Part shown: positions 9,802 to 29,807 of the stretch, in pieces
How positions within the stretch are numbered: the stretch's first letter is position 1
Layout of the letters: each line of letters starts with the position of its first letter
Origin: an uncultured Acidobacteriota bacterium
Lineage (GTDB): Bacteria > Acidobacteriota > Thermoanaerobaculia > Thermoanaerobaculales > Sulfomarinibacteraceae
Assembly (NCBI GenBank): GCA_963753035.1
Contig: CAVWAW010000009.1
Span: 2,956-66,955, forward strand
DNA length: 64,000 nt
Reading direction: 5' to 3'
Made by a program: the position numbers and the translations under genes
Notes under the pieces: generated by a model
Told to the model about the DNA's origin: nothing
Seen by the model: the letters and a program-made list of their open reading frames with translations, nothing else
Database searches by the model: none

Positions 9802-9829
9802 GGTGTCGCTCCAGAAAATGCAGTACCAG

Positions 9830-11729: not shown

Positions 11730-11751
11730 GGGGTCAGTGTAGCTGAAACCG

Positions 11752-11792: not shown

Positions 11793-11854
11793 CGCAGGGG
11801 ACCGATGCTGGAGCCGTTTCGGTCTCGGAACTGAACCACAGAGGCGTCGCAGCG

Positions 11855-11928: not shown

Positions 11929-11994
11929 TACAAATGGCACCCCGTTCGAGGCCAGATTTGCAGACCCTCGAAAGAACGCGGGATAGGGGCGTGC

Positions 11995-12220: not shown

Positions 12221-12269
12221 TATCGATTGCCCCGTTGCGATACTCCTATCCAGATCGCGTAGGCGACGC

Positions 12270-14000
<1,731 letters not shown>

Positions 14001-14747
14001 TCAATCCCCACTGTTCATCATCATTCGGACGCGTTCGAGGTCCTGTGGCGTGTCCACTCCATGAGCCTCGTCCGGTGCGTCGAAAACCAAAATATCGATG
14101 CCGTTGGCCAGGGCGCGGAGCTGTTCCAGTCCCTCGGCCTGTTCCAGCGAAGACGGCGCCATCGCGACAAACGCCGCAAGCGTCTCAGGCCGGAAGCCAT
14201 AGATTCCCAGGTGAAGCCGCCACAACGACTCGGCGGCGCCCGGATCCCGCGGGAAAGGAATCGCGGAGCGCGAGAAGTACAGAGCCTTGCCATCCGTCCT
14301 TCGGACGACTTTGACCGCATTGGGATCTTCCACATCCACGGCCGAAATCGGCCGGCAGAGCGTCGCCATCCCGACCTCGGGCCGCGCGCGCATCCCTTCG
14401 ACTAGAGTGTCGATGTTGGCCCCCGAGAGCATGGGCTCATCGCCCTGGACGTTGATCACGAGTTCCCAGTTCGATCCTCCTGCAACCGCCTCGGCGATCC
14501 GGTCGGTCCCCGAGGGATGGACACCCGTCATCACGGACTGGGCGCCGGCCTCATTCGCGGCGGCCGCAACCCGCTCGTCGTCGGTGGCGACGATCACGTG
14601 ATCGACGGTCGTCGCGGCGAGCGCCCGGCGCACCACGTGGGCGATCATGGGCTCACCATTCAGCTCGGCCAAGGCCTTACCGGGAAAACGGGTCGACCCC
14701 CAGCGTGCGGGGATCGCCGCAACGACGCGTGGTGCATCAATTGTCAT
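14001..14747 (-). CDS. kdsB: 3-deoxy-manno-octulosonate cytidylyltransferase
   Basis: AIPARWGSTRFPGKALA and NVQGDEP motifs; 248 aa; upstream of pyrG. Confidence 0.9.
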   Translation of the reverse strand: MTIDAPRVVAAIPARWGSTRFPGKALAELNGEPMIAHVVRRALAATTVDHVIVATDDERVAAAANEAGAQSVMTGVHPSGTDRIAEAVAGGSNWELVINVQGDEPMLSGANIDTLVEGMRARPEVGMATLCRPISAVDVEDPNAVKVVRRTDGKALYFSRSAIPFPRDPGAAESLWRLHLGIYGFRPETLAAFVAMAPSSLEQAEGLEQLRALANGIDILVFDAPDEAHGVDTPQDLERVRMMMNSGD

Positions 14748-14803
14748 CCTGTAGTGGAATGCTAGCGATCATCGGGCCATGAGTCAAGGCCTCTTTCAAG
14801 ATT

Positions 14804-14821
14804 AATACAATCGTTTGTATT
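14804..14821. promoter_or_regulatory. Candidate TetR operator (AATACAA-N4-TTGTATT) in the AT-rich divergent kdsB/tetR spacer
   Basis: A perfect 7-bp inverted repeat is read directly. A weaker atacaN6tgtat lies at 14942-14957, overlapping the tetR ATG. Confidence 0.45.
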
Positions 14822-14953
14822 TCCCCAGTATCTCAACAGAAAAAATGAGTTAAGAGGTTGATTCTCGAGCAAATCCTGAGCGAATGGAATGTCGGGCAGG
14901 GTCGGTTGCCAAAAAGATTGATCTCGACCCCGGATTTTGATACAAACAACTGT

Positions 14954-15551
14954 ATGACTTTGGACACCAAATCGCGCCTTCTGGAGACCGCCGCGACCCT
15001 CTTTGCCGATCACGGCTACCGCGGAGCGTCGGTTCGCCATATCTGCGATCTGGCGAGGGCGAACCCCGGGGCGGTCTCCTATCACTTCGGCGGGAAGAAA
15101 CAGCTCTATCGCCTCGTGCTTCGCAGGGCGGCCGCAGCGCTGGCGGAACTCACGATCATCGAGGACGCGACCCGGCGAAGACTCCCCTCCCCTCGAGATC
15201 TCCGATGCCGTGGATCGAATCCTCCGCCGGATGGACGATCACCCGCATGAAACCCGGCTGCTTCTGCGTGACCTCGCAGACGGCGGCGATGTCGCAGTGG
15301 AGGCTTTGGAGCCGACGCTCCGAACCGCGTTCGAGAATCTCCGGCTGGCCATCGGCGAGGACGCCGCGCCCCGGGGATCATCGAGCGGCCGCGCGCTGTT
15401 TCTCGATCTCGCCGCTCCCCTTTTTCTCCTCACAGCAGCGTGGCCGGTGCTGCAGCGGGCGCTCGATCTCGACCCCGATCAGCGGAAGGGACTACTCACC
15501 GACGCCTGCCGACGCACTCTGAAAGCTCACGGGTATCCGGAGCTGGGATAG
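14954..15551 (+). pseudogene. TetR-family transcriptional regulator; frame broken once between about 15150 and 15185
   Basis: The N-terminal HTH (SRLLETAATLFADHGYRGASVRHICDLARANPGAVSYHFGGKKQLY) is in ORF 14858..15250. The ligand-domain continuation (ISDAVDRILRRMDDHPHETRLLLRDLADGG...) is in ORF 15003..15551. Confidence 0.7.
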
Positions 15552-15759
15552 CCAGCGCACCCTCCGGCTCGGGTGGATGCTCGATCTCGTCGAAGAGTGA
15601 ACCAGCTTCATGCAATGGACCGAAGTGATTGACACCCACCAGTCCTCGTCGCTAACCTGTCGGAGATGAGAGGCCGATCGCTGATTCATGCCGGAACGAG
15701 CGGGCACCGACCGGCGGTGCCCCTCATCACCTACGTGAACCGTTTCAGCGGCCTCTAGT

Positions 15760-15824
15760 CTCCCTGTTTTCCGCTATTCACCGAAACAACACGGCGCCGG
15801 CCACGGCGCCTCGGAAACAGGGAG
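15760..15824 (+). promoter_or_regulatory. Leader helix that can sequester the RBS of the downstream operon
   Basis: ctccctgttt (15760-15769) is complementary to aaacagggag (15815-15824, the SD region 7 nt before ATG 15831). The GC hairpin ggcgccggccacggcgcc lies between them. A possible TTGACA -35 box is at 15648. Confidence 0.4.
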
Positions 15825-15830
15825 AATCTT

Positions 15831-16986
15831 ATGAGAATGATCGTACTCGGCTGCGGCCTGGTCGGTGGACCGATGGCCGTGGATCTGGCGAAGGATCCAG
15901 GGTCTGAAATCACCATCGTCGACAGAAACCAAGATGCGCTACGAGCCTTGGCGGGCAAACACTCCAACATCGAGACGGTGCAACGGGATCTGGGAAATCC
16001 GCGAGAGATAGCTGCGCTGATCGCCGACCATGACATCGTGATCAACGCGGTCCCCGGATTCATGGGTTTTCAAACCCTCGAGGCCATCATCGGAGCCGGG
16101 AAGAACGTCGTCGACATCGCCTTCTACCCGGAGAACCCCTTCGACCTCGATGCTCTGGCCAGGGACCGGGGCGTCACAGCGGTGGTCGACTGCGGCGTGT
16201 CCCCGGGTCTGAGCAATCTGCTGATAGGCCACATCCACGAGCGGCTGGACCGAACCGACTCGATTCTCATCTATGTCGGTGGGCTGCCGGAGATCCGCCA
16301 CTGGCCCTTCGAGTACCGTGCCGTTTTTTCGCCCATGGACGTCATCGCCGAATACACCCGGCCGGCGCGTTTCGTGGAGAACGGCAGACTGGTGACCCGT
16401 CCCGCCCTCTCCGATCCCGAGCTCATCGACTTTCCCGGCATCGGAACCCTCGAGGCGTTCAACACCGACGGTCTCAGAACCCTGGCCGATACAATCGACG
16501 CTCCGAACATGAAGGAGAAGACCCTCCGCTACCCGGGCCATATCGAGAAAATGGTCTTTCTACGCGAAGCGGGGTTCTTCGACGAGGAACCGGTCGTGGT
16601 CGACGGCCGTCCGATTCGACCGGTCGATTTCACCGCCGAGCTGATGTTCCCGCAGTGGCAGATGGACGACGGCGAGGTCGACATCACGGTGCTGCGGATC
16701 ATGGTCGAGGGCGAGGAGCGACGGCCAGTCTCGTCGGTATGTCTACAACCTCTTCGACCGATACGATTCCTCGAGCGACACCCACTCCATGGCCCGCACC
16801 ACCGGCTACACCGCCACCATGGCGGCACGGCTGTTGGCAACGGGCCGGTACGACCGGAAAGGCATCTCGCCGGCGGAGTTCGTGGGACGTGACCGAGAAT
16901 GCGTCGAGTTCATGCTCAAAGGCCTCGCTGATCGTGGCATCATCATCGAGGCGCACGAGGACGCCTTGGCGCACCAGAAGTCGTGA
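15831..16986 (+). pseudogene. Saccharopine-dehydrogenase-family oxidoreductase; single frameshift at about 16719
   Basis: Rossmann N-terminus MIVLGCGLVGGPMAVDL. The C-terminus YVYNLFDRYDSSSDTHSMARTTGYTATMAARLL is in the +1 frame (ORF 16789..16986). Removing c16719 gives VEGEEDGQSRRYVYNLFDRYD. Confidence 0.75.
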
Positions 16987-17053
16987 GAGTCCGAATCCGT
17001 ATTTGCTAAGGTGTCATCGGGCCAAAACCTCGCCTTCCGCCAGGAGGATCACC

Positions 17054-18506
17054 ATGCGTCCCAAGGTCAGATTTCTCGACGACGACCTCAAGATCAGGAT
17101 CATCGACGAGGCCCGCCATCTGCTGTGCACGCTCGGCGTGGAGATTCACAACCCCCGCGTGCTCGGTCTGATCGGCGACCACGGCGCCGAGGTGGATCCG
17201 GCCAAGCAGCATGTCCGATTGACGGACGAACTCATCGACCGGGCGCTATCCACCGTGCCGAGCGGATTCAAGCTCTACGACGTCGTCGGCCGGCAGACGC
17301 ACGACCTCTCGGGCGACAACGTGTACTTCACGCCAAGCTCGGCCGCCATCAACATCCTCGACAACGGCGCCATGCGAAAGCCCCAAACCGCCGACTACGT
17401 CAAGTATGCCAAAGTGGTCAGCGGGCTCGATCACATTCAGGCGCAAAGCACGGCATTCATCCCCGCAGACGTGGCCGAGGAGATCTCGGACAGTTACCGG
17501 CTCTTTCTCAGCCTGCTCTATTGCGAAAAACCGGTGGTCACCGGAGCCTTCACAATCGGTGCGTTCGACATCATGCGTGATCTCCAGCTGGCGGTCCGTG
17601 GCTCTGCGGAGGCGCTCAGGTCCAAGCCGTTGACCGTCTTCTCGTGTTGCCCCACAGCACCCATCAAGTGGAGCGAGTCAACCTCGCAGAATGTCGTGGA
17701 TTGCGCTCGGATGGGAATCCCGGTGGAGTTCATCTCGATGCCGTTGTCCGGTTTCATGGCGCCGGTCACGATTGTCGGGTCTCTGATCCAGCACACCGCC
17801 GAGACTCTCAGCGGCGTTGTCATCAGCCAACTCGCCGGCCCCGGCACACCGGTCCTCTACGGCGGCTCTCCCGCGATCTTCGACATCCGGTACGAAACCA
17901 CGCCCATGGGCGCCGTCGAAACCGAGATGCTCGATTGCGCCTACTCAGAGATCGGCAAACACCTCGGCATGCCCACCCAGGCCTATATCGGCTTCAGTGA
18001 CGCAAAACGGTTCGACGCCCAGGCGGGCTTCGAAACCGCCATGGGGGCGACCCTGGCGGCGTTGTCCGGCATCAACAGCATCTCAGGTCCCGGAATGCTC
18101 GACTTCAGCAGCTGTTTCAGCCTCGAGAAGCTCGTACTCGACAACGAAATCTGCGGCCATGACACAGCGTCTCGTCAGGGGAATCGAGCCGCGAGAGGAC
18201 TTCCCCTCCACGCCGATCTTCGAGGAGCTCATCCGCGACAAGCACCTGCTCATCGCCGATCACACCCGGCGCCACCTCAAGGACGAGATCACTTTCCCGG
18301 GACCCGTCGTCGATCGCGCGAACAGCTCTCGTTGGCTCGAGGATGGGGCACTCACCCTCCACGAACGGGCCGCGAAAGAGGTCGGGAAACTCATCGATTC
18401 CTACCAACCTTCGGCGTTACCCGACGATGTCAAATCCGAGCTGGAACGCCTGATGACGGCTGAAGCGCGTCGATTCGGCATGGATAGTCTGCCCGGCCGG
18501 GATTGA
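17054..18506 (+). pseudogene. MttB-superfamily (non-pyrrolysine) quaternary-amine:corrinoid methyltransferase; single frameshift at about 18158
   Basis: MRPKVRFLDDDLKIRIIDEARHLLCTLGVEI... runs to ...LVLDNEICG in ORF 16655..18463. It continues MTQRLVRGIEPREDFPSTPIFEEL... in ORF 17817..18506. The extra c lies in ggCCatg. RBS aggagg precedes ATG 17054. Confidence 0.8.
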
Positions 18507-19234
18507 TGTCGGGAATCGCGCATTTTCCGCGTTCCACGGCGACGCCGGATCGTCATACGGTGTTGAGGGCACAGGGTATCCCCGACGAAGCATCGGTCCC
18601 GGAACGTGTCGCCGCACTCGTTGATGACGGGTTTGAGATCTACTCCAGCGCTGTCGATGCCACGGGCATTCGAGCGGAAATCTCCATCGAGGAATTCGAC
18701 GCGGTCTACCGCGGAGAGGGCCGAAACGCCTCCCGAACACCACTCGAGGGGGTTTTCCCCGGCGCGCACCGCCTGGCGTTGTTCGCGGTCACCGTCGGCG
18801 AGGCGGTGTGCAGCGAGATCCGCCGTCTTTTCGACACCGGTGATCCGGCGCTGGGATACACCCTCGACACCATCGCGTCGGCCGGCGCCGAGGGTTTGGC
18901 CGACGCCATGGCTCGCGACTACCAAGATACGGTCTCGCAGTCGAATCCCAACGCCTCCGACGTGCGCGTCCTGCCCTACAGTCCGGGCTACTGCGGCTGG
19001 CACGTCAGCGGCCAGGCAAAGCTCTTCCGGTTTCTCCAACCCGGGCGCATCGGCATCTCGCTCAACGCCAGCGCTCTGATGGAACCTCTGAAGTCGGTCT
19101 CCGGCGTATTGGTGGCTTCCGACAGAGAGATCCACGACTTCGATATCGAGTTCGAATTCTGCGCCCACTGCGCCGGCCAGGAATGCCGGGAACGGATCCA
19201 ATCGGTTCTTTTCGACACCCGTGGAGGTCAATGA
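18503..19234 (+). CDS. Methionine-synthase activation-domain-like protein (corrinoid reactivation accessory)
   Basis: VLPYSPGYCGWHVSGQAKLFRFL...LMEPLKSVSGVL resembles the SPGYxxW/KSVS pattern of Met_synt_B12-type domains. It overlaps the neighbouring genes by 4 nt on both sides. Confidence 0.5.
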   Translation: MMSGIAHFPRSTATPDRHTVLRAQGIPDEASVPERVAALVDDGFEIYSSAVDATGIRAEISIEEFDAVYRGEGRNASRTPLEGVFPGAHRLALFAVTVGEAVCSEIRRLFDTGDPALGYTLDTIASAGAEGLADAMARDYQDTVSQSNPNASDVRVLPYSPGYCGWHVSGQAKLFRFLQPGRIGISLNASALMEPLKSVSGVLVASDREIHDFDIEFEFCAHCAGQECRERIQSVLFDTRGGQ

Positions 19235-19869
19235 TGGAAATTCTGCAGGAGATCGCTTCGAGTCTCAGAAACGGTGACGACCAGCGCACGGCCCTGCTGA
19301 CCCAGCAGGCCATCAACGATGGTATTCCTGCCGAAGAGATTCTGAACACCGGGCTCATGGCCGGGATGAAGGTTGTGGGCGCGCTGTTTCGCGACCACGA
19401 TATCTTTCTCCCCGAGGTGCTGCTCGCCGCTCGCGCGATGAACAGCGGTGTGGATCTGCTCAAACCGCTGCTCGCCGGCGGGGATGTCCCGACCATCGGG
19501 AAGGTGGTGATCGGGACCGCCAAGGGCGATCTTCACGACATCGGCAAGAACCTGGTCGGGATCATGCTCAAGGGCGCCGGTTTCGAGGTCATCGACCTCG
19601 GAAACGACGTGACTGCGGAGCGGTTCGTCGACGCCGCCGTGGAATCGGGGGCAAAGGTCATCGGCATCTCGGCGCTGCTCACCACTACGATGTCTTCGAT
19701 GAAGGGTGTGGTCGATCTCGTGCAGGAGCGAGGACTGGGCGGAAAGATCCACATCATCGTCGGTGGCGCTCCCGTGTCGAAGGAGTTCGCCGCCGAGATC
19801 GGCGCCGACGCCTACGGATACGACGCCGCCAACGCGGTGGAGCAGGTCAAGGCGCTGACGGGCGTCTGA
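19231..19869 (+). CDS. Corrinoid (cobalamin-binding) protein, MtbC/MttC-like
   Basis: B12-binding signature GDLHDIGKN (DxHxxG), then SALLTTT and GGA. There is an ATGA overlap with the upstream gene. Confidence 0.85.
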   Translation: MMEILQEIASSLRNGDDQRTALLTQQAINDGIPAEEILNTGLMAGMKVVGALFRDHDIFLPEVLLAARAMNSGVDLLKPLLAGGDVPTIGKVVIGTAKGDLHDIGKNLVGIMLKGAGFEVIDLGNDVTAERFVDAAVESGAKVIGISALLTTTMSSMKGVVDLVQERGLGGKIHIIVGGAPVSKEFAAEIGADAYGYDAANAVEQVKALTGV

Positions 19870-19896
19870 TCGGAGACCCTCTCCCTCTCAAGCCCT

Positions 19897-19982
19897 CGAT
19901 TCCTGCATTCGATCCTGATCCCGATCCCATTCCCGATACCGAACTTGCGCCATCCGGGAACCGGGTCGGGATCGGGACCGAC
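19897..19982. repeat. Hexamer-periodic array forming an imperfect palindrome between convergent genes (possible bidirectional terminator)
   Basis: gatcctgatcccgatcccattcccgataccg faces cgggaaccgggtcgggatcgggaccg. Confidence 0.5.
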
Positions 19983-20002
19983 TCAATCCTCGTATGCCCC
20001 TC

Positions 20003-22468
20003 TCAACACCTGACGCGCTCCATCTTGGGGTCGTACATCGGGCGCATGGGCAGGCCAACCTGGAGGGGGTAGCGCTTGCCCGCAATGTCGATCTCCCATT
20101 CGCCCGCCTCGAGATAGGCCTTGTTGATCGGTTCGCCGGCCTCGATCATGGCCAGACCCACCGCGCCGCCGAGGGTGAATCCGTAGCTCGCCGCACGGAC
20201 ATAACCGACCGCCTTGTTGTTCCGATAGACGACCTCGGCGTGGTAGAGCAGCGGTTCGGGGTCCCTGACCAGCACCTGCAGCAGGCGCTGGTTGTAGGCC
20301 GGCCCCTGGGCCTTCTTTTCGACACAGAATGCCTTGCCGATGAAATCCGGTTTCTTGAGGTCCACCGCGAAACCGAGACCGACCTCATAGGCGTTGTCGG
20401 TGTTGTCGATGTCGTGACCGTAATCGCGGTAGGCCTTTTCCATGCGCAGGCTGCCCAGAGCCCGCAGACCGGCGTGACGAAGACCGAAGTTCGCGCCCGC
20501 CTCGATGACCCGGTCGTAGACGTGCGCCGCCTGCTCCGCGGGGATGTTCAACTCGTATCCGAGTTCGCCGACGTAGGTGATCCGGTTGCACGTCATGCGT
20601 GCGTACCCGATGTCGATCTCGCGTGCGGTGCGGAAGGGAAAGGCCTCGTTGGACAGATCCGCCGATGTGATGGATTGCAGCAACTCCCGCGATCTCGGGC
20701 CCTGCACATTGAGCTGACCGATTCCGCCCGTGACATCGGTGAGAAAGCAGTGCGCATCCGATGGGATGTGGCGCCTGAGCCACGTCTCGACGTGGCGGTG
20801 CATGGTGTCGGTGACCACCACGACAAAGCTCTCCTCGTTCAGTTTGGTGACCGTGACGTCGGCCTCCAGTTTGCCGCGTTCGTTGAGAAACTGGGTGTAG
20901 GTGATGGTCTCGACCGGGCCGTTGACGCTGTTGGCCGAAATGTGGTCGAGCACCCTCCCGGCATCGCGCCCCTGGACGAGAAATTTCCCCATGAACGTCA
21001 TGTCCATGGCGATGACGGCCTCGCGGCAGGCCCGGTGTTCCGCCTCCCAATAGGGAAACCAGTTCTGTCGTCCCCATGACAGTTTCTCGACCTTGGGCTC
21101 CCGTCCCTCCGGCGCATACCAGGCCGGGCTTTCCCATCCGCTCACATCGGTGAAGTAGGCGCGTTGGTCCTTCAGCCGATCGTGAAAGGGTGAACGCTTG
21201 CAGTCGCGCGCGGTCAGGGGCACGCGGGTGGGATAGTGGCGTCGAAAGACCATCCCCAGTGTCTCGACCACGCGGGTCTTGCGGTACTCGGGGTTGCACT
21301 GGTAGGGGTGAAAGCGATCAACATTGATCCCGGTGATGTCCGCACCCGGGTCGCCGGTGGTGATCCACTGGGCCATGATCCTGCCGAGGCCGGGACCGGT
21401 GATGATGCCGATGGAGTTGAGTCCCGCGGCGACGAAGTAGTTCTCGATCTCCGGCGCCTCGCCGAAGGCCACGCCCATGTCGGGCGTAAAGCTTTCCGGG
21501 CCGCAGAAAAATTTCTTGAGGCCGATCTCCCGGGAGATCGGGACGCGGCTCATGGCTTTCTCGAGGAAGGGCGCCATGCGATCCCAGTCGGGCTCGATCT
21601 CGCCGAAGGTGAAGTCATCGGGGACGCCGTCCACCATCCACGGGGCGCAGACCGGCTCGAACAGTCCGATCATCAGGCCGCCTCCTTCTTCCCGGTAGTA
21701 TCCGTGACAGGAGGGGTCCTCGATGATGGGCAACTGCCGCGTCATTCCCTCGAAGGGCTCGGTGATGAGGTAGTAGTGCTCGGTGGACTGGTTCGGGATG
21801 CTCACGCCCGAGAGGGCGCCGAGCTGTCGCGCCCACATGCCGGCGCAATTGACCACGAACTCAGCCTCGATGGTGCCCTGCGTGGTGGTCACGCCCGTTG
21901 CTCGGCCGTTCGTGGTGGTGACGCCCGTGACCGCCACGCCCTCGATGATCTTGACGCCCTTCTGACGTGATCCTTTGGCCAGGGCCATGGTCGCGTCCAC
22001 GGGATTGACGCGCCCATCCTGCTTCAGATAGTAGCCCGCCTGGATATCGTCGACCCTGGCCAGGGGAAAGAGCCTCTTGATCTCATCGGGGCCGATCTCC
22101 TCGACGTCGTTGCCGTGCAGACGGTTGAACGTCGCGACCCGCCGATACTCCTCCACCCGGTCCGAGTCTGCGGCGAGCTCGATGAGACCCAGGGGCTCGA
22201 AGCCGGTGCCGAGCCCGGTCTCCGCCTCGAGACGACCATAGAGTTCACGTGTGTACATTCGCATCTCGATCGAGGTCGCCGAGGTCGAGCCGAAGGTGGT
22301 CATCAGCCCCGCGGCGTGCCAGGTCGTGCCCGAGGTGAGCTCGCTCCGCTCGATGAGAACGACGTCACTCCAGCCGAGGTGGCCGAGGTGGTAGGCGATG
22401 GAACAACCGATGATGCCGCCGCCGATGATGACGACGCGCGCGTGATCCGGAACCTGTTCTGCTGGCAT
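20003..22468 (-). CDS. Dimethylglycine/sarcosine-dehydrogenase-like flavoprotein (DAO domain + GcvT aminomethyltransferase domain)
   Basis: FAD fingerprint VVIIGGGIIGCSIAYHL and a C-terminal GcvT-like half. I chose ATG 22468 (MPAEQV...). Confidence 0.85.
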   Translation of the reverse strand: MPAEQVPDHARVVIIGGGIIGCSIAYHLGHLGWSDVVLIERSELTSGTTWHAAGLMTTFGSTSATSIEMRMYTRELYGRLEAETGLGTGFEPLGLIELAADSDRVEEYRRVATFNRLHGNDVEEIGPDEIKRLFPLARVDDIQAGYYLKQDGRVNPVDATMALAKGSRQKGVKIIEGVAVTGVTTTNGRATGVTTTQGTIEAEFVVNCAGMWARQLGALSGVSIPNQSTEHYYLITEPFEGMTRQLPIIEDPSCHGYYREEGGGLMIGLFEPVCAPWMVDGVPDDFTFGEIEPDWDRMAPFLEKAMSRVPISREIGLKKFFCGPESFTPDMGVAFGEAPEIENYFVAAGLNSIGIITGPGLGRIMAQWITTGDPGADITGINVDRFHPYQCNPEYRKTRVVETLGMVFRRHYPTRVPLTARDCKRSPFHDRLKDQRAYFTDVSGWESPAWYAPEGREPKVEKLSWGRQNWFPYWEAEHRACREAVIAMDMTFMGKFLVQGRDAGRVLDHISANSVNGPVETITYTQFLNERGKLEADVTVTKLNEESFVVVVTDTMHRHVETWLRRHIPSDAHCFLTDVTGGIGQLNVQGPRSRELLQSITSADLSNEAFPFRTAREIDIGYARMTCNRITYVGELGYELNIPAEQAAHVYDRVIEAGANFGLRHAGLRALGSLRMEKAYRDYGHDIDNTDNAYEVGLGFAVDLKKPDFIGKAFCVEKKAQGPAYNQRLLQVLVRDPEPLLYHAEVVYRNNKAVGYVRAASYGFTLGGAVGLAMIEAGEPINKAYLEAGEWEIDIAGKRYPLQVGLPMRPMYDPKMERVRC

Positions 22469-22648
22469 GGGCACATCCTGTGATGGAGATAGAAACAACA
22501 ACCCTCGATGTTGACGGACCTTCAGGACCGATGAACTCTCCTCGCGCTCCAGCAATAGTACACGACGGATTCTCTTTGTTCTCGCTCGATTTACGGCGCC
22601 CTCGCCGAGGTTTGGCGAACCATCTGCGAGTCACCCTGAGCGAGCGAG

Positions 22649-23607
22649 TCAGACGACGTAGTCCTCACGCTCCATCGCCTCGAGCTCTCGAGAAACGGCC
22701 GCCCTCACCTCCGGCGGCATGTCGTGCTCCCTGGCCAACATCGGGCGCAGCCCCTTGCCAACGCCGTCATCGATGAAGTGGGGCCGGACAAAATCGGAGG
22801 TCCAGGTCCGGTCCTCGAAGGACCTGCTCTCGAGCCGCTCGAAGAAGCTCTTGATGCCCCTGTCCGGATCTCCTTCCAACTCCCTGAAGTAGGAGCCGTA
22901 GATGTGGAGCGAGTCGCTGATGTCGACATAGCGGCCGAGCCGAACCGGCCGGCCGCTTGATTTCGAGATCTTCTCCGCGATCTTTCGCATCAGCGCCGTC
23001 AGGGCGATAACGTTCTCGAACCAGGCCTTGTAGAGATCACGGCTCCGCCAGTGCGTGTTCATGTTGAAGACGAGGACCCCGTCATCATCCTCGATCAGCC
23101 GTCCCCAGATTCTCTGCAGACACGGCGGATGATCTGAGGGCGGGTCGAGAATCGGGTTCCAAGTGATGCCCTGAGCGCGTCGGCTGTAGCCGGTCCGGGC
23201 GAGCTTCTTCACCATGAAATCCAACTGGTCGATGACCGAATTGTCGATCTCGTACTCGGCGAGACGCCGGTGATAGGTGTAGGTCCAGCGGGTATCGGTG
23301 CTGTCGACGCCTTTGAGGATCTCCTCCCGCGGCTTGATCCAATAGTCGTGGGCGCCGTGAACAACTTCCATGACGTACTCTGAGAGTCCCCCAGCCCATC
23401 GGCAAATGAACGGTGGAAACGCGGCTGGCCGAACGGATTCTCGACGGTGATCACCACCGTGGCATCCCGGCTCGGCGGATCCTCGGGACGATCGTACTCG
23501 GTGCGGACGCTCACCCCTTTTTCCCAGACCTCCTTGATGGCCCTCTCGTACGCGCGCGGGATAGTCTCGCCGAAAACACTCAAAACCGGAATGTCCCCTG
23601 AGTTCAT
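22649..23607 (-). pseudogene. Thymidylate-synthase-fold protein (divergent, archaeal-like); -1 frameshift in a C5/G5 run at 23388-23392
   Basis: The N-terminal part (MNSGDIPVLSVFGETIPRAYERAIKEVWEKG...FADGLG) is in ORF 23209..23607. The remainder (GLSEYVMEVVHG...RRAQGITWNPILDPPSDHPPCLQRIW...HWRSRDLYKAWFENV...SLHIYG) is in ORF 22649..23659. Adding one G restores DGLGGLSEY. Confidence 0.6.
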
Positions 23608-23687
23608 ACTTCCTCCCTCGGATCAATTCTAGTCTCAACCGGAGAGGACGACTCCCCACCCGACAGGGTGCCAGGCACTACCGTGGT

Positions 23688-24101
23688 CTATTCGAGCTGA
23701 TCGAGAGATCTCGGGCTCGTAAGCCTTGATAGACACTCGATGAGTTCGTCCTGATCGACCGGTTTGGCGAGCACGCAATCGGGCCCGCGCTCGAGATCAA
23801 GGCCCCTGAGATAGGTCCTGCCGTTGTCCTGGACGATGGAGTCGTTGCCGGTGAGGACCACCACGGGAACCGGTGACCAGCGTTCGTGTTGGCGGATCGT
23901 CACGAGCAGATCGAGCCCGGATCTTCCGGGCATGATGACATCGAGGATGACCGCATCGGGCTCGACCTCGTCGAGGGCGACCAACGCCGCCGATGTGCGA
24001 TTCGCCGACGAAACCTCATATCCGTGATCCTCGAGAAAGAGACCGAGATACTCAACGATGTCAGGGTCGTCGTCGACCACCAGGATCCGTCTCGGTTCCA
24101 C
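23688..24101 (-). CDS. Receiver-only response regulator
   Basis: ILVVDDDPDIVEYL, VILDVIMPGRSG and AKPV are present, with no output domain. The GTG start shares one base with the kinase TAG stop (TAGTG). Confidence 0.85.
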   Translation of the reverse strand: MEPRRILVVDDDPDIVEYLGLFLEDHGYEVSSANRTSAALVALDEVEPDAVILDVIMPGRSGLDLLVTIRQHERWSPVPVVVLTGNDSIVQDNGRTYLRGLDLERGPDCVLAKPVDQDELIECLSRLTSPRSLDQLE

Positions 24102-25681
24102 TAGGAACTCCCGGCAGTCCTGGCTCCGGCGATCTCGCCGTCGACCGTCGTGCTCGGGCGGGCGACCAGCGGAATCCGGACGACGAAACGGGTGCCCTTG
24201 CCCGATTCGGATTCGACATCGATGTTGCCACCATGTTTGTCGACGATCTTGTTCGAGATGAAAAGCCCGAGACCCGTCCCCTTGAGACCCTTGGATGAGA
24301 AGAACAGCGAAAAGATCCGATCACGGGTCTCCCTGTCCATCCCGATCCCGTTATCCTCGACCGAAATGATCATATAGGGCTCGGCCCGACGGGCTCCGAC
24401 GGTGATGACATGGTCGGTCTTTTCGCTGTCCATACGGCAGGCATCGATGGAGTTCTCGATGAGATTGAGCAACATCGCCCGAATCGCCTGAGGATCGCCA
24501 TCAAAAACGCCGATATCGTCGGGAATCTTGAATCGGACGTCGGCGCCGAGATCGAGGGCCTTCTTCTTGATGCCGTCCCTCAGATCGTCGACCATCCCCG
24601 CGAGGCTGATGTCCTCGACGATGAGTTCCCGATCCTTGGCGTAGTAGAGAATATCGAGCACCATGGACCGAATCCGATCCACGTTGCGCTGGACCATTTC
24701 CCAGCCTTTTTTGACCCGCTCGGGTTTGTCTCGCTCGAATCCGGAGTTCACCATGTAGATGCCGCCGTCGAGACCGGTGAGCAGGCCCTTGATACCGTGC
24801 GAGATCGAACCAACCAGAAGTCCGATGGAGGTCAACTGGTCCTGCAGTTTGCGAATCTGGGTGATGTCCACACCCATCTCGATGACGGACTCGACCACGC
24901 CATCGGAATTCCGAAGCGGGGCGGTGGTGACCAGAAGATTGAGCTCTTCGCCATCCTTGGACAAGACCGTGGTCTCGTAGTCGTGCGTATCGCCGGTCTC
25001 GAACGTACTCATCATCGGGCACGTAAGGCACTTTTCCTCACGGTGCTTGTAAACCCGGAAACACTCCTCGCCGACACCGTAACCAAAGGCCTCACGGAAT
25101 CGTCGATTGGCGCGGCGAATGACGCGGTCGGGCCCCTGGACGGTGATAAAGCAGGGCACCTCTTCGAAGAGCTGCAGCAGCCGCCCCTGGCTCTGCCGGA
25201 GTTCTTTCTGGAGTACCTTGACCTCCTCGATCTCGGTGTGCATCTCCATCACCGCCACAACCTCGCCCGAGGTATCGCGAATCGGGGTCGTGTGCACCAT
25301 CACCGGAACCTGTTCCCCTGATGCCGTCGTCAGCAGTTGTTCCGACGGATGATTCTGGCCATCGAGAAACGTCGCCTCCACGGGGCAACTCGGGCAGATA
25401 TCGTCACGCCCCTTGTAGACCTTGAAACAGTGCTGGCCGATCCTTTCGCCGAAGTCCTGACGAAAGCGTCGGTTTCCCTCGATGATCCGGAACTCCCGGT
25501 CGTGGATCGAGAGATAACAGGGCATTTCGTCCCAGTACCGACGATACATGGCGGAATCTGTTAGCAGGTGCGAGTTCGCTTCGACACCGTGCACCCGCCT
25601 GGCGGCAGAAAAACCATCGGGCTCGACCGCGCCGGAATCCGGCGCGGTCGGCCCGATGGGAATGAGATCTCTATCGGCCAA
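24101..25681 (-). CDS. Sensor histidine kinase with two PAS domains, each carrying four Cys
   Basis: H-box SISHGIKGLLTGL and ATP-lid motifs DNGIGM and GTGLGL. The PAS regions have PCY...HCFKVYKGRDDICPSCP and PCF...ECFRVYKHREEKCLTCP. The TTG start lies 2 nt after the upstream stop. Confidence 0.85.
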   Translation of the reverse strand: MADRDLIPIGPTAPDSGAVEPDGFSAARRVHGVEANSHLLTDSAMYRRYWDEMPCYLSIHDREFRIIEGNRRFRQDFGERIGQHCFKVYKGRDDICPSCPVEATFLDGQNHPSEQLLTTASGEQVPVMVHTTPIRDTSGEVVAVMEMHTEIEEVKVLQKELRQSQGRLLQLFEEVPCFITVQGPDRVIRRANRRFREAFGYGVGEECFRVYKHREEKCLTCPMMSTFETGDTHDYETTVLSKDGEELNLLVTTAPLRNSDGVVESVIEMGVDITQIRKLQDQLTSIGLLVGSISHGIKGLLTGLDGGIYMVNSGFERDKPERVKKGWEMVQRNVDRIRSMVLDILYYAKDRELIVEDISLAGMVDDLRDGIKKKALDLGADVRFKIPDDIGVFDGDPQAIRAMLLNLIENSIDACRMDSEKTDHVITVGARRAEPYMIISVEDNGIGMDRETRDRIFSLFFSSKGLKGTGLGLFISNKIVDKHGGNIDVESESGKGTRFVVRIPLVARPSTTVDGEIAGARTAGSS

Positions 25682-25683: not shown

Positions 25684-27495
25684 TCAGTTTGCTTTCTCGT
25701 CTACTTTCTCAATGATATGCGCTACATAGGATATCAGTTTCTCTTCATCGACCGGTTTGTTGAGGTAGCCCTCTGGGGGCGGCACTCCGCGATCATAGAT
25801 GACCTTGCGGAACTCCGGGTGGCCGGTGACGACACAGACCGGAATTTCCTGGATCTCCGGGGTCTTGCGGAGTTCGAAAAAGGCATCGACACCGCTCTTT
25901 CCGGGCATGGAAAGATCGAGGGAGATGAGATCCGGTTTGAAGGTTTTGGCCTTCTCGATGCACTCGTCGCCATCGGCGGCTTCCACAACCTCGGCGCCGG
26001 CGTCCTCGAAGACCGTGACGAGGAAGGTCCTGATGTCCTCTTCATCGTCGACCACCAGAATCTTCCGTCCGGCCAGGGGCGCCTCGGCGGCGACGGCGGG
26101 AGCGGCAGCCTTCTCATCAACGGGTTCCACAACCACCGGGGGTTCGGGCATCGGCGCGCCGGCCGGGCGGTTCTTCATGACGGCGCATTCCTCGAGCACC
26201 AGCGCATCGGCCACAAGGTCGACGAGCTGCTTGACCTCGCAGCCGAGCTCGTAGTGCTTGATCAGGTCCGACAGGCCGTCGACGCAGTTGTGGCAGCTGG
26301 TGACCACGACTGTAGCGCCGGTCTCGCGGATCTGGTTGGCCTTGATCTCGGCAGACTTGAGCCTGCGCGGGGTGTACTCGGACATGGACATGGCGCCGCC
26401 GCCGCCCGTGCAGCAGAAATTCTCGGCACGGTTGGGGTACATCTCCTGGAAGTCGGTGGTGACCATCCTGAGCAGCTCGCGCGGCTCCTCGAAGAAACCG
26501 CAGCTGCGGGCGTTGTTGCACGAATCGTGGAAGGTCATTCGCTGGGAGTTCTTGGTCGGATCGACGACGATCTTACCCTGCTTGATGTACTCGATCATCG
26601 TCATGACCGAGCTCTCCATCGGAAAGGCCTCGGCATCACCCGACCAGTTGACGCCTTCGCACCGGGTCGACCGGTAGCCGTGGCCGCACTCCGAGATCAC
26701 GATCTTCTCGACGCCCAGTTCCCGAGCCTTGTCGTACTCGCGTTTTGCACTTGCGCCGCCGAGGCCGTCGTCGCCCGAGAAGAGGCCGAAGTTGGTGTTG
26801 TCCCAGCCTTCGGACGGCATGGTCCAATCCTCACCGGCAGCCCAGAAGATGAGCGCGGCTTCCTTGATGGTGCGCGGGTCGTACTTCACTTCGCGCGGGT
26901 TGATGGCGTACATGATCTTGGCGCCGGCTTTGTCGATGGGAATCTCAGCCTCACCGTGGCCGAGATCCTCTTCGAGCTCCTCGGACATCCACTCGATGGT
27001 GTCGAGGTAGTCCTCCTTGAGGACGCCCATCTGGTTACCGAGCTCCCACTGGTCCTTTGAGACAACCCGAACGCCTTCGGGCATCACGCCGACGTTGGTC
27101 AGCAGACCGCGCATGATCCGGTTCAAAGTGGCGGTGTCGACGCCCATCGGACAGTTGATGGTGCAACGACGGCAGTTGGTGCAGGTGCCGAAGGCGACAT
27201 CCTTGAGCTTGTCAAGGTCTTCGTCGGTCAGCGGCACCTTGTCGGCGCCAACCCACCAGGGAAAGACACTTCCCGTCCAGTCGTGGTTGGCCTTGAAGAG
27301 CTTGCGCAGCTGATCGGCCTTGTACGACGGGGTCATCTTGGGGTCTTCCGGGTGCGACAGAACATAGTGGCAGCAGTCGTTGCACATGCCGCAGTGGACG
27401 CAGCCCACCAGCGAGCCGACCACCTGGCGGTTCAGCTTCTTGGTGAGCTGCTCTTCCATCATTTTGATCTTGTGAGTTTTGGCTGGTTTGGTCAT
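25684..27495 (-). CDS. HdrD/DsrK-like iron-sulfur CCG-domain oxidoreductase fused to a C-terminal receiver (REC) domain
   Basis: Two Cys clusters (CVHCGMCNDCC, CTNCRRCTINCP) and CCG-type motifs (FCCTGGGG ... SCHNCVDG; CGHGYRSTRC ... FHDSCNNARSC). The REC has KILVVDDEED, LISLDLSMP, VCVVTG and LNKP. AGGAGG lies 5 nt before the ATG. Confidence 0.75.
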   Translation of the reverse strand: MTKPAKTHKIKMMEEQLTKKLNRQVVGSLVGCVHCGMCNDCCHYVLSHPEDPKMTPSYKADQLRKLFKANHDWTGSVFPWWVGADKVPLTDEDLDKLKDVAFGTCTNCRRCTINCPMGVDTATLNRIMRGLLTNVGVMPEGVRVVSKDQWELGNQMGVLKEDYLDTIEWMSEELEEDLGHGEAEIPIDKAGAKIMYAINPREVKYDPRTIKEAALIFWAAGEDWTMPSEGWDNTNFGLFSGDDGLGGASAKREYDKARELGVEKIVISECGHGYRSTRCEGVNWSGDAEAFPMESSVMTMIEYIKQGKIVVDPTKNSQRMTFHDSCNNARSCGFFEEPRELLRMVTTDFQEMYPNRAENFCCTGGGGAMSMSEYTPRRLKSAEIKANQIRETGATVVVTSCHNCVDGLSDLIKHYELGCEVKQLVDLVADALVLEECAVMKNRPAGAPMPEPPVVVEPVDEKAAAPAVAAEAPLAGRKILVVDDEEDIRTFLVTVFEDAGAEVVEAADGDECIEKAKTFKPDLISLDLSMPGKSGVDAFFELRKTPEIQEIPVCVVTGHPEFRKVIYDRGVPPPEGYLNKPVDEEKLISYVAHIIEKVDEKAN

Positions 27496-27504: not shown

Positions 27505-28191
27505 CTAACCCCGGGCGATGGGGTAGCTGCCCCGGTGACCAAGCGTACGGCCGATCCAGATCCGGGTGAAGGGGTAATAGAGATAGTGGGAGATCTTTGA
27601 AAACGGAACATAGACCAGGAAGAAGCTGGTCAGGAAAAGATAGGCCACGAGGATGTTCACACTCTCGAAACCCTGGACACCCGCTAGGTGGGCCTGAGTC
27701 ACGGTGCCGAGACCGAACCACGCGGTCAGCATGAAGAGCGAGAAGTAATCGTCGGGTGTACTGATGAGTTTCATCACCGGAGTGAAGAGCCGCCGAAATA
27801 CCCGGTAGATCGCGACCAGAAACGCGAGGAACAGGGTGCTCCCGCAGATCCAGGCGAATGCCGGGCTGGCGACGAGATTCGGGGTGATCGAACTCAAGAA
27901 AGCCAGGGTGATGCCCGCGACCACGCCGAGATGGAAAATGACGAAGGTGAGGTAGAAGGCAAAGCCCTTGCGGGTGCTCTCCATCGACCACGGCATCGCC
28001 ACGTTGAAGAGCGAATAGAAGGCGCCCTTCTTCTTGTCGGTGCGTTGGGGCGCGCCCGGGGCGGATTTGTCGACGCCTGGCTTGAATTTGAAGAGCCACC
28101 TCAGGCGGAGGGAATAAACAACGGCCATGATGATCAGCGCCGCCCAGTGGACGATCTCGGCCGTGTGCAGCAGAGAACTCGACTCGTGCAT
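27505..28191 (-). CDS. Multi-pass membrane protein, NarI/DsrM/HdrE-like (putative b-type cytochrome/quinol-interacting subunit)
   Basis: It has several hydrophobic helices with conserved-looking His residues (EIVHWAAL, VIFHLGVV, FSKISHYLYYPF). It sits directly upstream of the CCG protein. ATG 28191 is 1 nt from the macro stop. Confidence 0.5.
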   Translation of the reverse strand: MHESSSLLHTAEIVHWAALIIMAVVYSLRLRWLFKFKPGVDKSAPGAPQRTDKKKGAFYSLFNVAMPWSMESTRKGFAFYLTFVIFHLGVVAGITLAFLSSITPNLVASPAFAWICGSTLFLAFLVAIYRVFRRLFTPVMKLISTPDDYFSLFMLTAWFGLGTVTQAHLAGVQGFESVNILVAYLFLTSFFLVYVPFSKISHYLYYPFTRIWIGRTLGHRGSYPIARG

Positions 28192-28192: not shown

Positions 28193-28726
28193 TCACACTC
28201 CTTCTTCGAATTTCGCGGTAAACGGACCAATTTCCCGGGGATCCTGTACCACGATCAGGACATCCTCGAGACCCGAGCCGTTTTCCAGGTGCCGACCGAT
28301 GGTGTCGATCATGACCCTGGCGCAGAGATCCATGGGAACCTGATAGATCCCGGTCCCGATGGGTGGGAATGCGAGCTGTTTGATGCCCTTCTCCTCGGCG
28401 AGAGCGAGCGCCGCCATGGTGGCTTTTTCGAGCTTGCCCGCTTCGTCTTCTTCACGGAACTTCGGGCCGTTGACGTGAATGATGTGGTTGGCCTTCAGGA
28501 TTCCGGCCTGGGTGACCACAGCTCCGCCGGTCGGGACCGAGCCGATCTCATCGAGTTCTTTTTGAATGACGATTCCACCGCGCTGTTGGATTGCGCCGCC
28601 GTACCCGGATCCCAGCTTGGCGTCCTCGGTAATGTCAAAGACAAAGGCCTCGACCTCGATGTCGGTAATGTCGCCACGCACCATCCGAAGTCGCTTGCCG
28701 CCGATGTTTCGCTCCACCATCTCCAT
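28193..28726 (-). CDS. Macro-domain (ADP-ribose binding/hydrolase) protein
   Basis: 177 aa with GDITDIEVEAFV, GSGYGGAIQQRGG, NGPKF and AFPPIGTGIYQVP. Confidence 0.85.
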   Translation of the reverse strand: MEMVERNIGGKRLRMVRGDITDIEVEAFVFDITEDAKLGSGYGGAIQQRGGIVIQKELDEIGSVPTGGAVVTQAGILKANHIIHVNGPKFREEDEAGKLEKATMAALALAEEKGIKQLAFPPIGTGIYQVPMDLCARVMIDTIGRHLENGSGLEDVLIVVQDPREIGPFTAKFEEGV

Positions 28727-28783: not shown

Positions 28784-29260
28784 TCAACTGCTCGACAGAA
28801 CGCTTCCCATTTGGATTTGCATCTCTCCGAGCTCAATTCCCTTTTCCCTAGCCCACGAAGGATCAAGGAGATCCTCCAGAGTGAATTCATCGAGCACCTG
28901 GGCGATCTTTTGATTGATGAGGCCGTAGACGATCCTGCATTCACAGAATTCGGCCTTCAGACATGACTCCGGCTCTTCGACGCAGTCAACGATGCAGACC
29001 GGTCCGATCGACGCTTCAATGATCTGCCGGATGGTGATTTTCGATGGCGGCGAGGCGAGCCGGTATCCCCCGTGCCTTCCCGCAACACTCTTGACCAACC
29101 GGGCGGCGCGAAGCGCAGGCGCCAGCTGTTCGAGGTATCCATGCGAGATGTCCGTTCGACCTGAAACCGACGATAGACTGACGGGCGAGGCGCTCCCTCC
29201 ATGATGGGCGATGTCGAGCATCATTCGAAGAGCGTAGCGGCCGCGGGTGGAGATCCTCAT
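28784..29260 (-). CDS. Rrf2-family (IscR-like) transcriptional regulator with a Cys cluster
   Basis: MRISTRGRYALRMMLDIA... is a winged-helix N-terminus, followed by the Cys-rich segment CIVDCVEEPESCLKAEFCEC. I chose ATG 29260. Confidence 0.85.
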   Translation of the reverse strand: MRISTRGRYALRMMLDIAHHGGSASPVSLSSVSGRTDISHGYLEQLAPALRAARLVKSVAGRHGGYRLASPPSKITIRQIIEASIGPVCIVDCVEEPESCLKAEFCECRIVYGLINQKIAQVLDEFTLEDLLDPSWAREKGIELGEMQIQMGSVLSSS

Positions 29261-29283
29261 GGCGATTTCGAATTTAAACATAA

Positions 29284-29308
29284 AATACCCATCTGTCAAC
29301 TAGGTATT
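29284..29308. promoter_or_regulatory. Candidate Rrf2 operator (AATACC-N13-GGTATT) in an AT-rich divergent promoter region
   Basis: The inverted repeat is read directly 24 nt upstream of the Rrf2 start. The shape is similar to IscR-type sites (ATAxx...xxTAT). Confidence 0.4.
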
Positions 29309-29423
29309 AATGAATACATCCTGATTCTCATTCTCAGAGCGCGAATTGTTGCCCGAGACCAACCGGGGTGCTATCTTGAAATCGACCGATGGCCCGGGCA
29401 ACGGAGTCGGTCTAGGAGGCAGA

Positions 29424-29807
29424 ATGGCAGCGAAAACCGCCCTCATCATCGACGACGAACCCGATGTCACGACCTACCACGGAACCGTGCTCAGCGATCA
29501 CGGCTGGGAAGTTCACACAGCGAACAGTGGCGCCGACGGCATCGCCATCGCTCAGGAAAAGAATCCGGATGTGATCTTGCTCGATGTGATGATGCCGGAG
29601 AAAGGCGGGCTCAGCACGCTGATCGCTCTGCGGAAGGACGATCGGACGAAGGAAATACCCGTGGTCCTCGTCACCGGGATCCAGGAAGCCCTCAACGCCG
29701 ATTTCGAGGCGTTTCTCGCCAGGTTCAAGACATACAACCCGAACGGGTATATGGAAAAGCCTATCGACGTGGACAAGCTGATCTCGACCCTGGAAGAACT
29801 CATCTGA
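29424..29807 (+). CDS. Receiver-only response regulator
   Basis: ALIIDDEPDV, ILLDVMMPEKGG, VLVTG and MEKPID. RBS aggagg is at 29414-29419. Confidence 0.85.
   Translation: MAAKTALIIDDEPDVTTYHGTVLSDHGWEVHTANSGADGIAIAQEKNPDVILLDVMMPEKGGLSTLIALRKDDRTKEIPVVLVTGIQEALNADFEAFLARFKTYNPNGYMEKPIDVDKLISTLEELI

Follow-up and report, generated by a model that had tools for sequence, protein, structure and literature searches.

What does a two-component receiver domain do at the end of a respiratory-type redox enzyme? The question is raised by a gene, here called hmcF::REC, in a 64,000-nucleotide stretch (the window) of contig CAVWAW010000009.1 from an uncultured acidobacterium of the Sulfomarinibacteraceae. 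Its product joins an iron-sulfur (Fe-S) catalytic subunit, through a linker, to a receiver (REC) domain. To our knowledge, two-component receivers control transcription factors, second-messenger enzymes, and chemotaxis proteins, and none is known to act on a subunit of a respiratory-type membrane redox complex. The gene cassette to which hmcF::REC belongs is an uncharacterized, strongly conserved, and widespread enzyme-type response regulator on a respiratory-type redox module; its mechanism is inferential, and phosphorylation-gated electron transfer, which the initial annotation took to be implied by the fusion, is a reasonable proposal that we adopt as the leading hypothesis.

The gene is intact, as had been claimed: a single uninterrupted open reading frame (ORF) of 603 amino acids (aa) with an ATG start and its own ribosome-binding site (RBS; AGGAGG, 5 nt before the ATG). 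It lies on the minus strand, the initial annotation having given none; a plus-strand reading of the interval was rejected, its frame being broken by a stop. G+C content at third codon positions is high throughout (0.86 in the N-terminal domain, 0.80 in the linker, and 0.71 in REC). Every motif quoted in the initial annotation is present in the minus-strand translation: the two ferredoxin-type clusters (CVHCGMCNDCC, residues 32–42; CTNCRRCTINCP, residues 105–116), the cysteine motifs that follow (CGHGYRSTRC, 270–279; SCNNARSC, 325–332; FCCTGGGG, 360–367; SCHNCVDG, 400–407), the Ala/Pro-rich linker (440–475), and the receiver motifs (VVDDEED, 481–487; LISLDLSMP, 523–531; VVTG, 555–558; LNKP, 578–581). 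Pfam finds Fer4_8 at residues 31–119 (1.2e-8), one CCG domain at 321–404 (1.3e-11), and Response_reg at 479–591 (1.2e-20; 74.2 bits against a cutoff of 30.2), and these matches are far above chance level.

The N-terminal half is predicted to be the cytoplasmic catalytic subunit of a two-subunit membrane redox module of the DsrMK/HmcEF type, with all catalytic ligands intact; in sulfate reducers such modules reduce disulfides of proteins. Conservation was scored in 73 full-length orthologues from genome loci and in a 146-sequence alignment. The cysteines had been read as two CCG-type motifs; they instead form one five-cysteine CCG motif together with a SECGH remnant, all invariant in the 146 homologues. 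The residue after the paired cysteines is Thr (CCT) instead of Gly. Conservation is partial at C279 and C332 and lacking at C41. DsrK, HmcF, and TmcB carry one CCG motif (CXnCCGXnCX2C) and a conserved cysteine in T/GECGH, the remnant of a second CCG motif, unlike HdrD and HdrB (Barbosa et al., PMC10861901); the pattern here equals that description, C270 belonging to such a remnant. Identity with HdrD was rejected, since HdrD requires two complete CCG motifs, whereas Pfam finds a single CCG domain and the first motif is reduced to SECGH. What survives of the original HdrD/DsrK-like label is thus the single-CCG lineage of the DsrK/HmcF/TmcB type.

Over residues 11–434 the best NCBIfam models are HmcF (1e-95, 321 bits), TmcB (6e-94, 315 bits), and DsrK (2e-75, 254 bits), but the scores fall short of the equivalog cutoffs of 750, 735, and 400 bits, respectively. 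This places the protein, by sequence, in a separate lineage inside the DsrK/HmcF/TmcB superfamily, nearest by score to HmcF and TmcB. No gene for an HmcA or TmcA cytochrome c, for HmcBCD, or for an NrfCD-like protein was found among the cassette genes of the window and of the loci examined. Because the equivalog cutoffs (those for HmcF, TmcB, and DsrK, and that for the DVU0259 receiver family described below) are not reached and the periplasmic cytochrome subunits are missing, the lineage is distinct from the Hmc, Tmc, and Dsr complexes. For the Fe-S/CCG half, the closest match in the PDB, by both sequence and fold, is EtfD of M. smegmatis (9ojn; Foldseek E 5.6e-12, phmmer 1.2e-10, 21% identity), followed by LutA.

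The fused REC, described in the initial annotation as complete, bears this out in Pfam and in alignment with E. coli CheY, and has every residue required for phosphorylation. D483/D484 correspond to D12/D13 of CheY, D527 to D57, T557 to T87, Y577 to Y106, and K580 to K109, and all six residues are conserved at 96–100% in both sequence sets; the Asp/Thr/Lys triad, whose absence on alignment had been named as grounds for doubt, is therefore intact. An AlphaFold2 (AF2) model has five strand/helix pairs with a per-residue confidence (pLDDT) of about 90–95, and by Foldseek the domain matches RR468, PhoB, and Spo0F at a TM-score of about 0.9; Foldseek support is limited to the folds of the Fe-S/CCG and REC halves taken separately. 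In the linker, pLDDT drops below 50 at residues 453–470. Family-specific conserved positions of REC cluster in beta4-alpha4-beta5 (C554, G558, P560, E561, R563, Y567, R569, P574, and G576). Cys554, a single cysteine, is conserved and lies in beta4, three residues before T557, at a position normally buried; a role as redox partner of the CCG site would be speculation. The best NCBIfam receiver family for all cassette RECs is NF045717 (the DVU0259 family), and all fall under its 160-bit cutoff (fused REC 83, free REC 70.6, and divergent REC 72.8 bits in the window; 104 and 110 bits for the free RECs of loci L040 and L042).

The fusion is widespread. A search over 5.8 billion proteins returned 2,903 relatives, and the best 120, which were examined, all have the Fer4-CCG-REC architecture (77–94% identity); a profile search listed another 120 at 60–65% identity from Zixibacteria, Planctomycetota, Bacteroidota, and FCB-group metagenome-assembled genomes (MAGs), and the architecture is present in all 240 proteins listed across both searches. 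On clustering at 50%, essentially a single full-length representative (P0121) remains of the fused family, and the next relatives are unfused proteins of 410–460 aa at 33–45% identity. A scan of GTDB species representatives gave 117 encoding loci, of which the best 80 (L001–L080), all from MAGs, were analyzed. These belong to Acidobacteriota (Thermoanaerobaculia/Sulfomarinibacteraceae, Holophagae, and Korobacteraceae), Planctomycetota, Zixibacteria, Myxococcota, Syntrophales, Ignavibacteria, Fibrobacteraceae, and LCP-89. Among bacteria of anoxic sediments the fusion is conserved in no fewer than eight phyla, with identities of 52% or above. The nearest relatives of the window protein are uncultured Acidobacteriota bins (94–97%); a lookup of its exact sequence among public assemblies gave no record. 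Fused proteins are annotated publicly merely as 'response regulator' or 'Fe-S oxidoreductase/CheY-like'. Three loci (L070, L076, and L080; matches at about 8001–9800) carry frameshifted copies of hmcF::REC and neighboring genes; L076 and L080 are of the 'MFD' MAG series, and L076, the closest relative of the window (97%), is affected across the whole cassette. These frameshifts look like assembly indel errors, not pseudogenes.

What gives the fusion its meaning is a conserved context that the initial annotation missed: the anchor, the macro gene, the double-PAS kinase, and a second REC are kept with it across phyla (Table 1). The gene order is (Rrf2)–macro–HmcE-like cytochrome b anchor–HmcF::REC–double-PAS histidine kinase–free REC. 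Occurrence was counted by tblastn of the window's neighboring proteins against all loci, with evaluable loci as denominators. The Fe-S protein carries the fused REC at 75 of 78 loci; a NarI-like anchor lies immediately upstream in 76 of 76 and a macro-domain gene upstream of the anchor in 72 of 74; a histidine kinase follows immediately in every fused locus (67/67), with a second REC past the kinase in 59 of 64; and an Rrf2 regulator is found farther upstream in 43 of 70. Cassette gene junctions in the window measure 0–9 nt: macro and anchor genes are 1 nt apart (TGA-C-ATG), the anchor TAG lies inside the RBS of hmcF::REC, 2 nt separate hmcF::REC from the kinase gene (TGA-CC-TTG), and the kinase TAG overlaps the free-REC GTG. 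No terminator-like site was seen on the coding strand of the cassette, and promoter and terminator scan counts were at chance level. hmcF::REC is co-transcribed with the soluble double-PAS kinase and a paralogous free receiver, the genes overlapping or abutting.

Table 1. Coordinates in the window of hmcF::REC, its parts, and the genes around it
Feature	Coordinates	Strand	Evidence or remarks
hmcF::REC gene (603 aa)	25684..27495	-	HmcF/TmcB/DsrK-type Fe-S catalytic subunit, flexible linker, and receiver domain
First ferredoxin-type [4Fe-4S] motif, CX2CX2CX3C (C32, C35, C38, C42)	27370..27402	-	Invariant in both alignments
Second ferredoxin-type [4Fe-4S] motif (C105, C108, C111, C115)	27151..27183	-	Invariant in both alignments
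S-E-C-G-H motif (C270, H272)	26680..26694	-	Both residues invariant; equivalent to T/GECGH, with the proposed catalytic cysteine of DsrK/HmcF/TmcB
Single CCG motif, C326-x34-C361C362-x38-C401-x2-C404	26284..26520	-	Five Cys invariant; predicted ligands of a noncubane [4Fe-4S] cluster
Ala/Pro/Glu-rich linker, residues 440–475	26071..26178	-	Least conserved part of the protein (0.42 column identity)
REC domain, residues 477–595	25711..26067	-	Pfam, CheY alignment, AF2, Foldseek
Phospho-acceptor D527	25915..25917	-	
T557	25825..25827	-	
K580	25756..25758	-	
HmcE/TmcC-like NarI-family membrane anchor (228 aa, about 5 transmembrane helices by hydropathy)	27505..28191	-	NCBIfam HmcE 8e-13, TmcC 5e-10
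Macro-domain protein (177 aa), first gene of core cassette	28193..28726	-	Pfam Macro 2.8e-27; NCBIfam ADP-ribose-binding protein 4.6e-33
Soluble histidine kinase, PAS-PAS-DHp-HATPase, H-box H295	24101..25681	-	Pfam, NCBIfam; no transmembrane segment
Free single-domain response regulator (137 aa)	23688..24101	-	Pfam Response_reg 1e-21; D11, D54, T84, K113 conserved
Rrf2-family transcription regulator upstream of cassette	28784..29299	-	Pfam Rrf2 5.9e-33
Third single-domain REC, divergent from Rrf2 gene	29346..29807	+	Pfam Response_reg 1.9e-19

The anchor profile aligns with a Pfam Nitrate_red_gam protein (hhalign, 93.6% probability), H87 and H202 both being aligned. The kinase has a complete catalytic core (the H-box and the N, G1, F, and G2 boxes) and four conserved cysteines in each PAS domain: in the first, C85, C96, and C99 are invariant and C56 is 60–90% conserved; in the second, C177, C207, C218, and C221 are all invariant. 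The two PAS domains share the pattern VPC...G..C..YK.R...C..CP, and H111 is likewise invariant. These Cys4 sets suggest a metal or Fe-S site, or redox-active thiols; we take their spacing to be unlike that of the [4Fe-4S] PAS domain of NreB. Outside the Acidobacteriota the free REC is a paralogue of the fused REC, 40–50% identical to it, and the two have a common signature in alpha1 and alpha4-beta5 (...FIxxRxxVPPPEGY..KP). In the macro protein the N-A-A-N stretch usual in MacroD-type enzymes is apparently replaced (FDITEDAKLGSGYGG). The true start of the Rrf2 gene is probably an internal Met (MRISTRG...); in Pirellulaceae loci a MerR regulator takes its upstream position. The divergent third REC is kept beside Rrf2 in acidobacterial loci only and is 36–43% identical to the fused REC.

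Three orthologues (L072, L077, and L079; 65–69% identity) are unfused, and in none of them were the kinase and the free REC seen, the L079 locus stopping only about 50 bp past the gene. Since both are missing where REC is unfused, the enzyme stands alone in these loci and the two-component system travels with the fusion. L072 and L077 retain macro-HmcE-HmcF, and the macro gene is thus kept in unfused variants too. In a neighbor-joining tree (no support values) the clade of fused proteins is monophyletic: a Fibrobacteraceae sequence, itself fused, branches at its base and the unfused sequences fall inside it, a pattern suggesting that REC, kinase, and free REC were secondarily lost together.

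Several loci link the cassette and its relatives to DsrC, the sulfur-carrier partner of DsrMK. In L077 the unfused hmcF-like gene is followed by a DsrC-family gene with the penultimate CysA and then by OsmC, with a desulfoferrodoxin gene farther downstream. A protein of the sister group, P0125 (L081:1322-4081), is DsrK/HmcF-like with DsrC, the presumed substrate of its Fe-S part, fused at the C-terminus, the position of REC in the cassette protein; its gene lies after a NarI-like anchor gene and before a second dsrC. The cassette of a Syntrophaceae MAG (L042, UBA5619; 1819-16784) is embedded on one strand among dsr genes (dsrA-dsrB-dsrN-dsrC-macro-hmcE-hmcF::REC-kinase-REC-dsrM-dsrK), and another DsrM-like/DsrK-like pair lies beyond them. 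In Pirellulaceae loci (L040:2422-6651, L054, and L059) genes for DsrC-like, DsrM-like, DsrK-like, and tandem double-DsrC (261 aa) proteins and MerR stand directly upstream, and an additional DsrM/DsrK-like pair is found downstream of the cassette; Planctomycetes are, as far as we know, not classical sulfate reducers. An Ignavibacteriales MAG (L065:11328-17703) has a second REC-kinase-REC set and an HmcF-like paralogue just downstream of the cassette on the opposite strand, and dsrABN lies roughly 5 kb upstream.

On this evidence we put at about even chances the reading that the cassette encodes a thiol/disulfide oxidoreductase module linked to quinones, in which a dedicated two-component system has the catalytic subunit as its output and controls it by phosphorylation. 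Like DsrMK, the module would shuttle electrons between the menaquinone pool and a cytoplasmic DsrC-type thiol/disulfide (or trisulfide) substrate. The Cys4-PAS domains would let the kinase respond to a redox or metal signal in the cytoplasm, and the kinase would phosphorylate D527; the phosphorylated REC, through its family-specific alpha4-beta5 face, would change the Fe-S subunit in its activity, its accessibility to substrate, or its oligomeric state, and electron flow through this HmcEF-type branch would thereby be switched post-translationally. The free receiver would compete for the same kinase as a phosphate sink or second messenger. The enzyme is proposed as the output because no DNA-binding or other effector domain was found by Pfam and NCBIfam in the kinase/REC part of the cassette, because fusion and kinase are gained and lost together, and because there is characterized precedent for REC-enzyme fusions: in essentially all those known to us (CheB, PleD, and RpfG), REC regulates the attached enzyme. 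A substrate of the DsrC type is suggested by the DsrC-like neighbor in L077, the DsrC fusion in P0125, and the linkage to Dsr genes in L042 and the Pirellulaceae.

Several observations weigh against this reading. A C-terminal REC on a disordered, poorly conserved linker of about 35 aa is no less compatible with a tethered partner than with an allosteric regulator. The alpha4-beta5 motif is common to free and fused RECs, and the face may bind a third party rather than the Fe-S domain. An interface between REC and the Fe-S half was sought in the AF2 model, which gave no usable information on it (pTM 0.62; pLDDT and secondary structure only; linker disordered). Because H87 and H202 are the only invariant histidines of the anchor, one bis-His haem at most is assured, and quinone coupling follows from family membership only. 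Dsr-type genes lie within 8 kb in only 12 of the 80 loci, and a search of the window for dsr genes found none besides hmcF::REC itself. Every member found comes from a MAG or metagenome. Finally, the enzyme-as-output model leaves the role of the invariably linked macro-domain protein unaccounted for, and we know of no connection between macro domains and DsrK/HmcF-type modules.

The wiring could also run in the opposite direction; this agrees with the same observations, but we consider it clearly less probable. HmcE and HmcF would then be the sensory input, their redox state mirroring the menaquinone pool or DsrC-type thiol oxidation and tuning the gain or loss of phosphate by the tethered REC, or the CCG site would act by redox chemistry directly on the PAS cysteines of a docked kinase; the actual output would be the free REC, with the fused REC serving to dock the kinase or as a phosphate sink tuned by redox state. 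The four conserved cysteines in each of the two PAS domains are consistent with such an arrangement, although these sets (CxxC plus 2 Cys) resemble metal or Fe-S ligands more than a redox-active disulfide pair. The position of REC is held by the substrate DsrC in the sister clade, and a dsrC-like gene follows the unfused gene of L077, which suggests that whatever is appended at the C-terminus is offered to the active site; the long, disordered linker is tether-like. The fused and free RECs are paralogous and near-identical in their alpha1 and alpha4-beta5 surfaces, as expected of competitors at one kinase, but the cassette encodes no downstream target of the free REC, which is missing in 5 of 64 loci while the kinase is never missing. 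There is general precedent in the quinone-dependent cysteine oxidation that controls ArcB and RegB and in the existence of phosphate-sink CheY proteins; the strict retention of all catalytic residues speaks for a turnover enzyme instead.

A further and rather doubtful possibility is that the quinone-linked oxidoreductase is itself a component of the phosphorelay, its CCG/ECGH site using electrons from menaquinone or a DsrC-type carrier to reduce or oxidize the Cys4-PAS domains of a kinase held by the tethered receiver. The cassette would then be a redox sensor of a new class, turning the state of respiration or of the sulfur carriers by enzyme action into a phosphorylation signal. The signal would pass onward through the free receiver, and the macro protein would be a further unknown input.

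A transcriptional role is unlikely. The fused REC would correspond to Rrf1 of Desulfovibrio, acting with the adjacent Rrf2 (or MerR) on expression of the operon, and the fusion would merely tether a regulator to the membrane complex on which it reports. According to PMC10924467, which cites Keon et al. 1997, the hmc cluster of D. vulgaris ends in hmcE-hmcF-rrf1-rrf2, and rrf1 and rrf2 control hmc expression; the window cassette is preceded by an Rrf2 gene, as are those of 43 of 70 loci (MerR replacing it in Pirellulaceae), and the best NCBIfam hit of all cassette RECs is the Desulfovibrio DVU0259 family. About 40% of loci, however, have no Rrf2 gene, whereas all have the kinase; we know of no interaction between a REC and Rrf2; and all cassette RECs score under the DVU0259 cutoff (70–110 bits against 160). 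A search with the free cassette REC for named Desulfovibrio DVU0259/Rrf1 proteins returned only close Planctomycetota orthologues, and the link to Rrf1 rests on the literature and the NCBIfam best hit.

That two separate genes were joined in assembly, named as grounds for doubt in the initial annotation and rejected here, or in gene calling, or that the domain is a decayed pseudo-receiver without a signaling role, is hardly credible. The frameshifts at a few related MAG loci (L070, L076, and L080) are confined to a single long-read MAG series and resemble indel errors. The gene is a single ORF with no change of frame and its own RBS; REC is likewise fused at 75 of 78 loci, which come from many independent MAG assemblies and at least eight phyla, and in all 240 listed database proteins; and the phosphorylation residues are all conserved.

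Other genes of the window lie beyond the cassette. At positions 16655-22555, adjacent to the cassette, is an apparent methylamine or glycine-betaine demethylation cluster. Its products are an MttB-family methyltransferase (16655-18463), an activation protein similar to Met_synt_B12, a protein that binds corrinoid (19183-19869), and, from the minus strand, a fusion of DAO and GCV_T (850 aa, 20003-22555) that resembles dimethylglycine or sarcosine dehydrogenase. This cluster is probably unrelated to the cassette, because it is conserved in the closest relatives only. The ORF past the free REC (22649-23659, minus strand) matches the archaeal-type thymidylate synthase model TIGR03283 (1.3e-27) at residues 113–259 only; its Arg-rich N-terminal extension looks non-coding, and the real start is therefore probably well downstream of the listed GTG.

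If phosphorylation of REC gates the module, as the enzyme-as-output reading proposes, the cassette would supply a valve that acts directly and post-translationally on the passage of electrons between the quinone pool and thiol carriers of the DsrC type, a step central to the sulfur cycle; if the module is instead a sensor, it would be a new way to read respiratory status. The fusion hard-wires a receiver to a respiratory module and may join respiration directly to two-component signaling, and the macro (ADP-ribose-binding) protein is newly tied to HmcF-type redox and two-component biology. Either way, there is now a testable explanation for an old puzzle, the clustering of response-regulator, kinase, and Rrf2 genes with hmc and tmc operons in Desulfovibrio: the fusion indicates that the receiver and the HmcF-type subunit cooperate physically. 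The cassette is relevant to the fields of both two-component signaling and anaerobic respiration.

Among signaling proteins, the cassette resembles CheB, PleD, RpfG, CheV, and hybrid kinases in having a canonical phosphorylatable REC linked to an enzyme or adaptor, with a presumably cognate kinase encoded alongside, and, as in systems of the CheB/PleD/RpfG/CheV type, a second REC as a possible phosphate sink. It differs from CheB, PleD, and RpfG in domain order, which is enzyme-then-REC, and in the attached domain, which is not a signaling enzyme but a respiratory-type Fe-S/CCG oxidoreductase subunit on a membrane cytochrome. The kinases ArcB and RegB sense quinones through their own cysteines. 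Common to them and the cassette, on general knowledge and with no sequence relationship claimed, would be the coupling of quinone-pool redox and cysteine chemistry to a phosphorelay; unlike them, the cassette has a complete, putatively quinone-linked oxidoreductase module as a separate, REC-bearing component.

Among redox enzymes, EtfD (9ojn) likewise combines a membrane cytochrome b with an HdrD-like module and exchanges electrons with menaquinone, but it is a single fused polypeptide without REC and serves ETF oxidation. The DsrMK module of the DsrMKJOP complex, a menaquinol:DsrC-trisulfide oxidoreductase (PMC10861901), likewise consists of a NarI-family membrane cytochrome b and a cytoplasmic Fe-S subunit, and DsrK, like HmcF::REC, has two ferredoxin clusters, one CCG motif, and a (T/G/S)ECGH cysteine. 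Cassettes are, moreover, recurrently linked to DsrC-family genes and in some genomes to dsrAB or dsrMK. Unlike DsrMK, the cassette comes without DsrJOP genes, its anchor has only two invariant His, and its Fe-S protein scores below the DsrK cutoff; the C-terminal REC, dedicated kinase, and macro-domain partner are cassette features, none of them known for DsrMK.

The closest likeness by NCBIfam is to HmcEF and TmcBC, whose families are the best matches for both cassette subunits (HmcF/TmcB and HmcE/TmcC). The initial annotation implied that a link between REC and a CCG protein was unprecedented. For the fusion as such, our literature searches found no published description of a CCG/HmcF/Hdr protein fused to REC, only remarks on hmc and tmc gene neighborhoods; but receiver and histidine kinase genes beside hmcF and tmcB have long been known in Desulfovibrio (PMC10924467, PMC5109826), and in D. 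multivorans and D. vulgaris the tmc and hmc genes have USP, kinase, and response-regulator genes at their sides (PMC5109826). The cassette differs from Hmc and Tmc in the covalent fusion of REC, in the presence of a macro-domain gene, and in scores far under the HmcF and TmcB equivalog cutoffs; its hosts are Acidobacteriota, Planctomycetota, Zixibacteria, Ignavibacteria, and others rather than Desulfovibrionales. As in the Desulfovibrio hmc cluster, a receiver comes directly after hmcF and an Rrf2 regulator belongs to the cluster, and HmcF::REC is in effect a Rosetta-stone version of the pair formed there by hmcF and an rrf1-type receiver.

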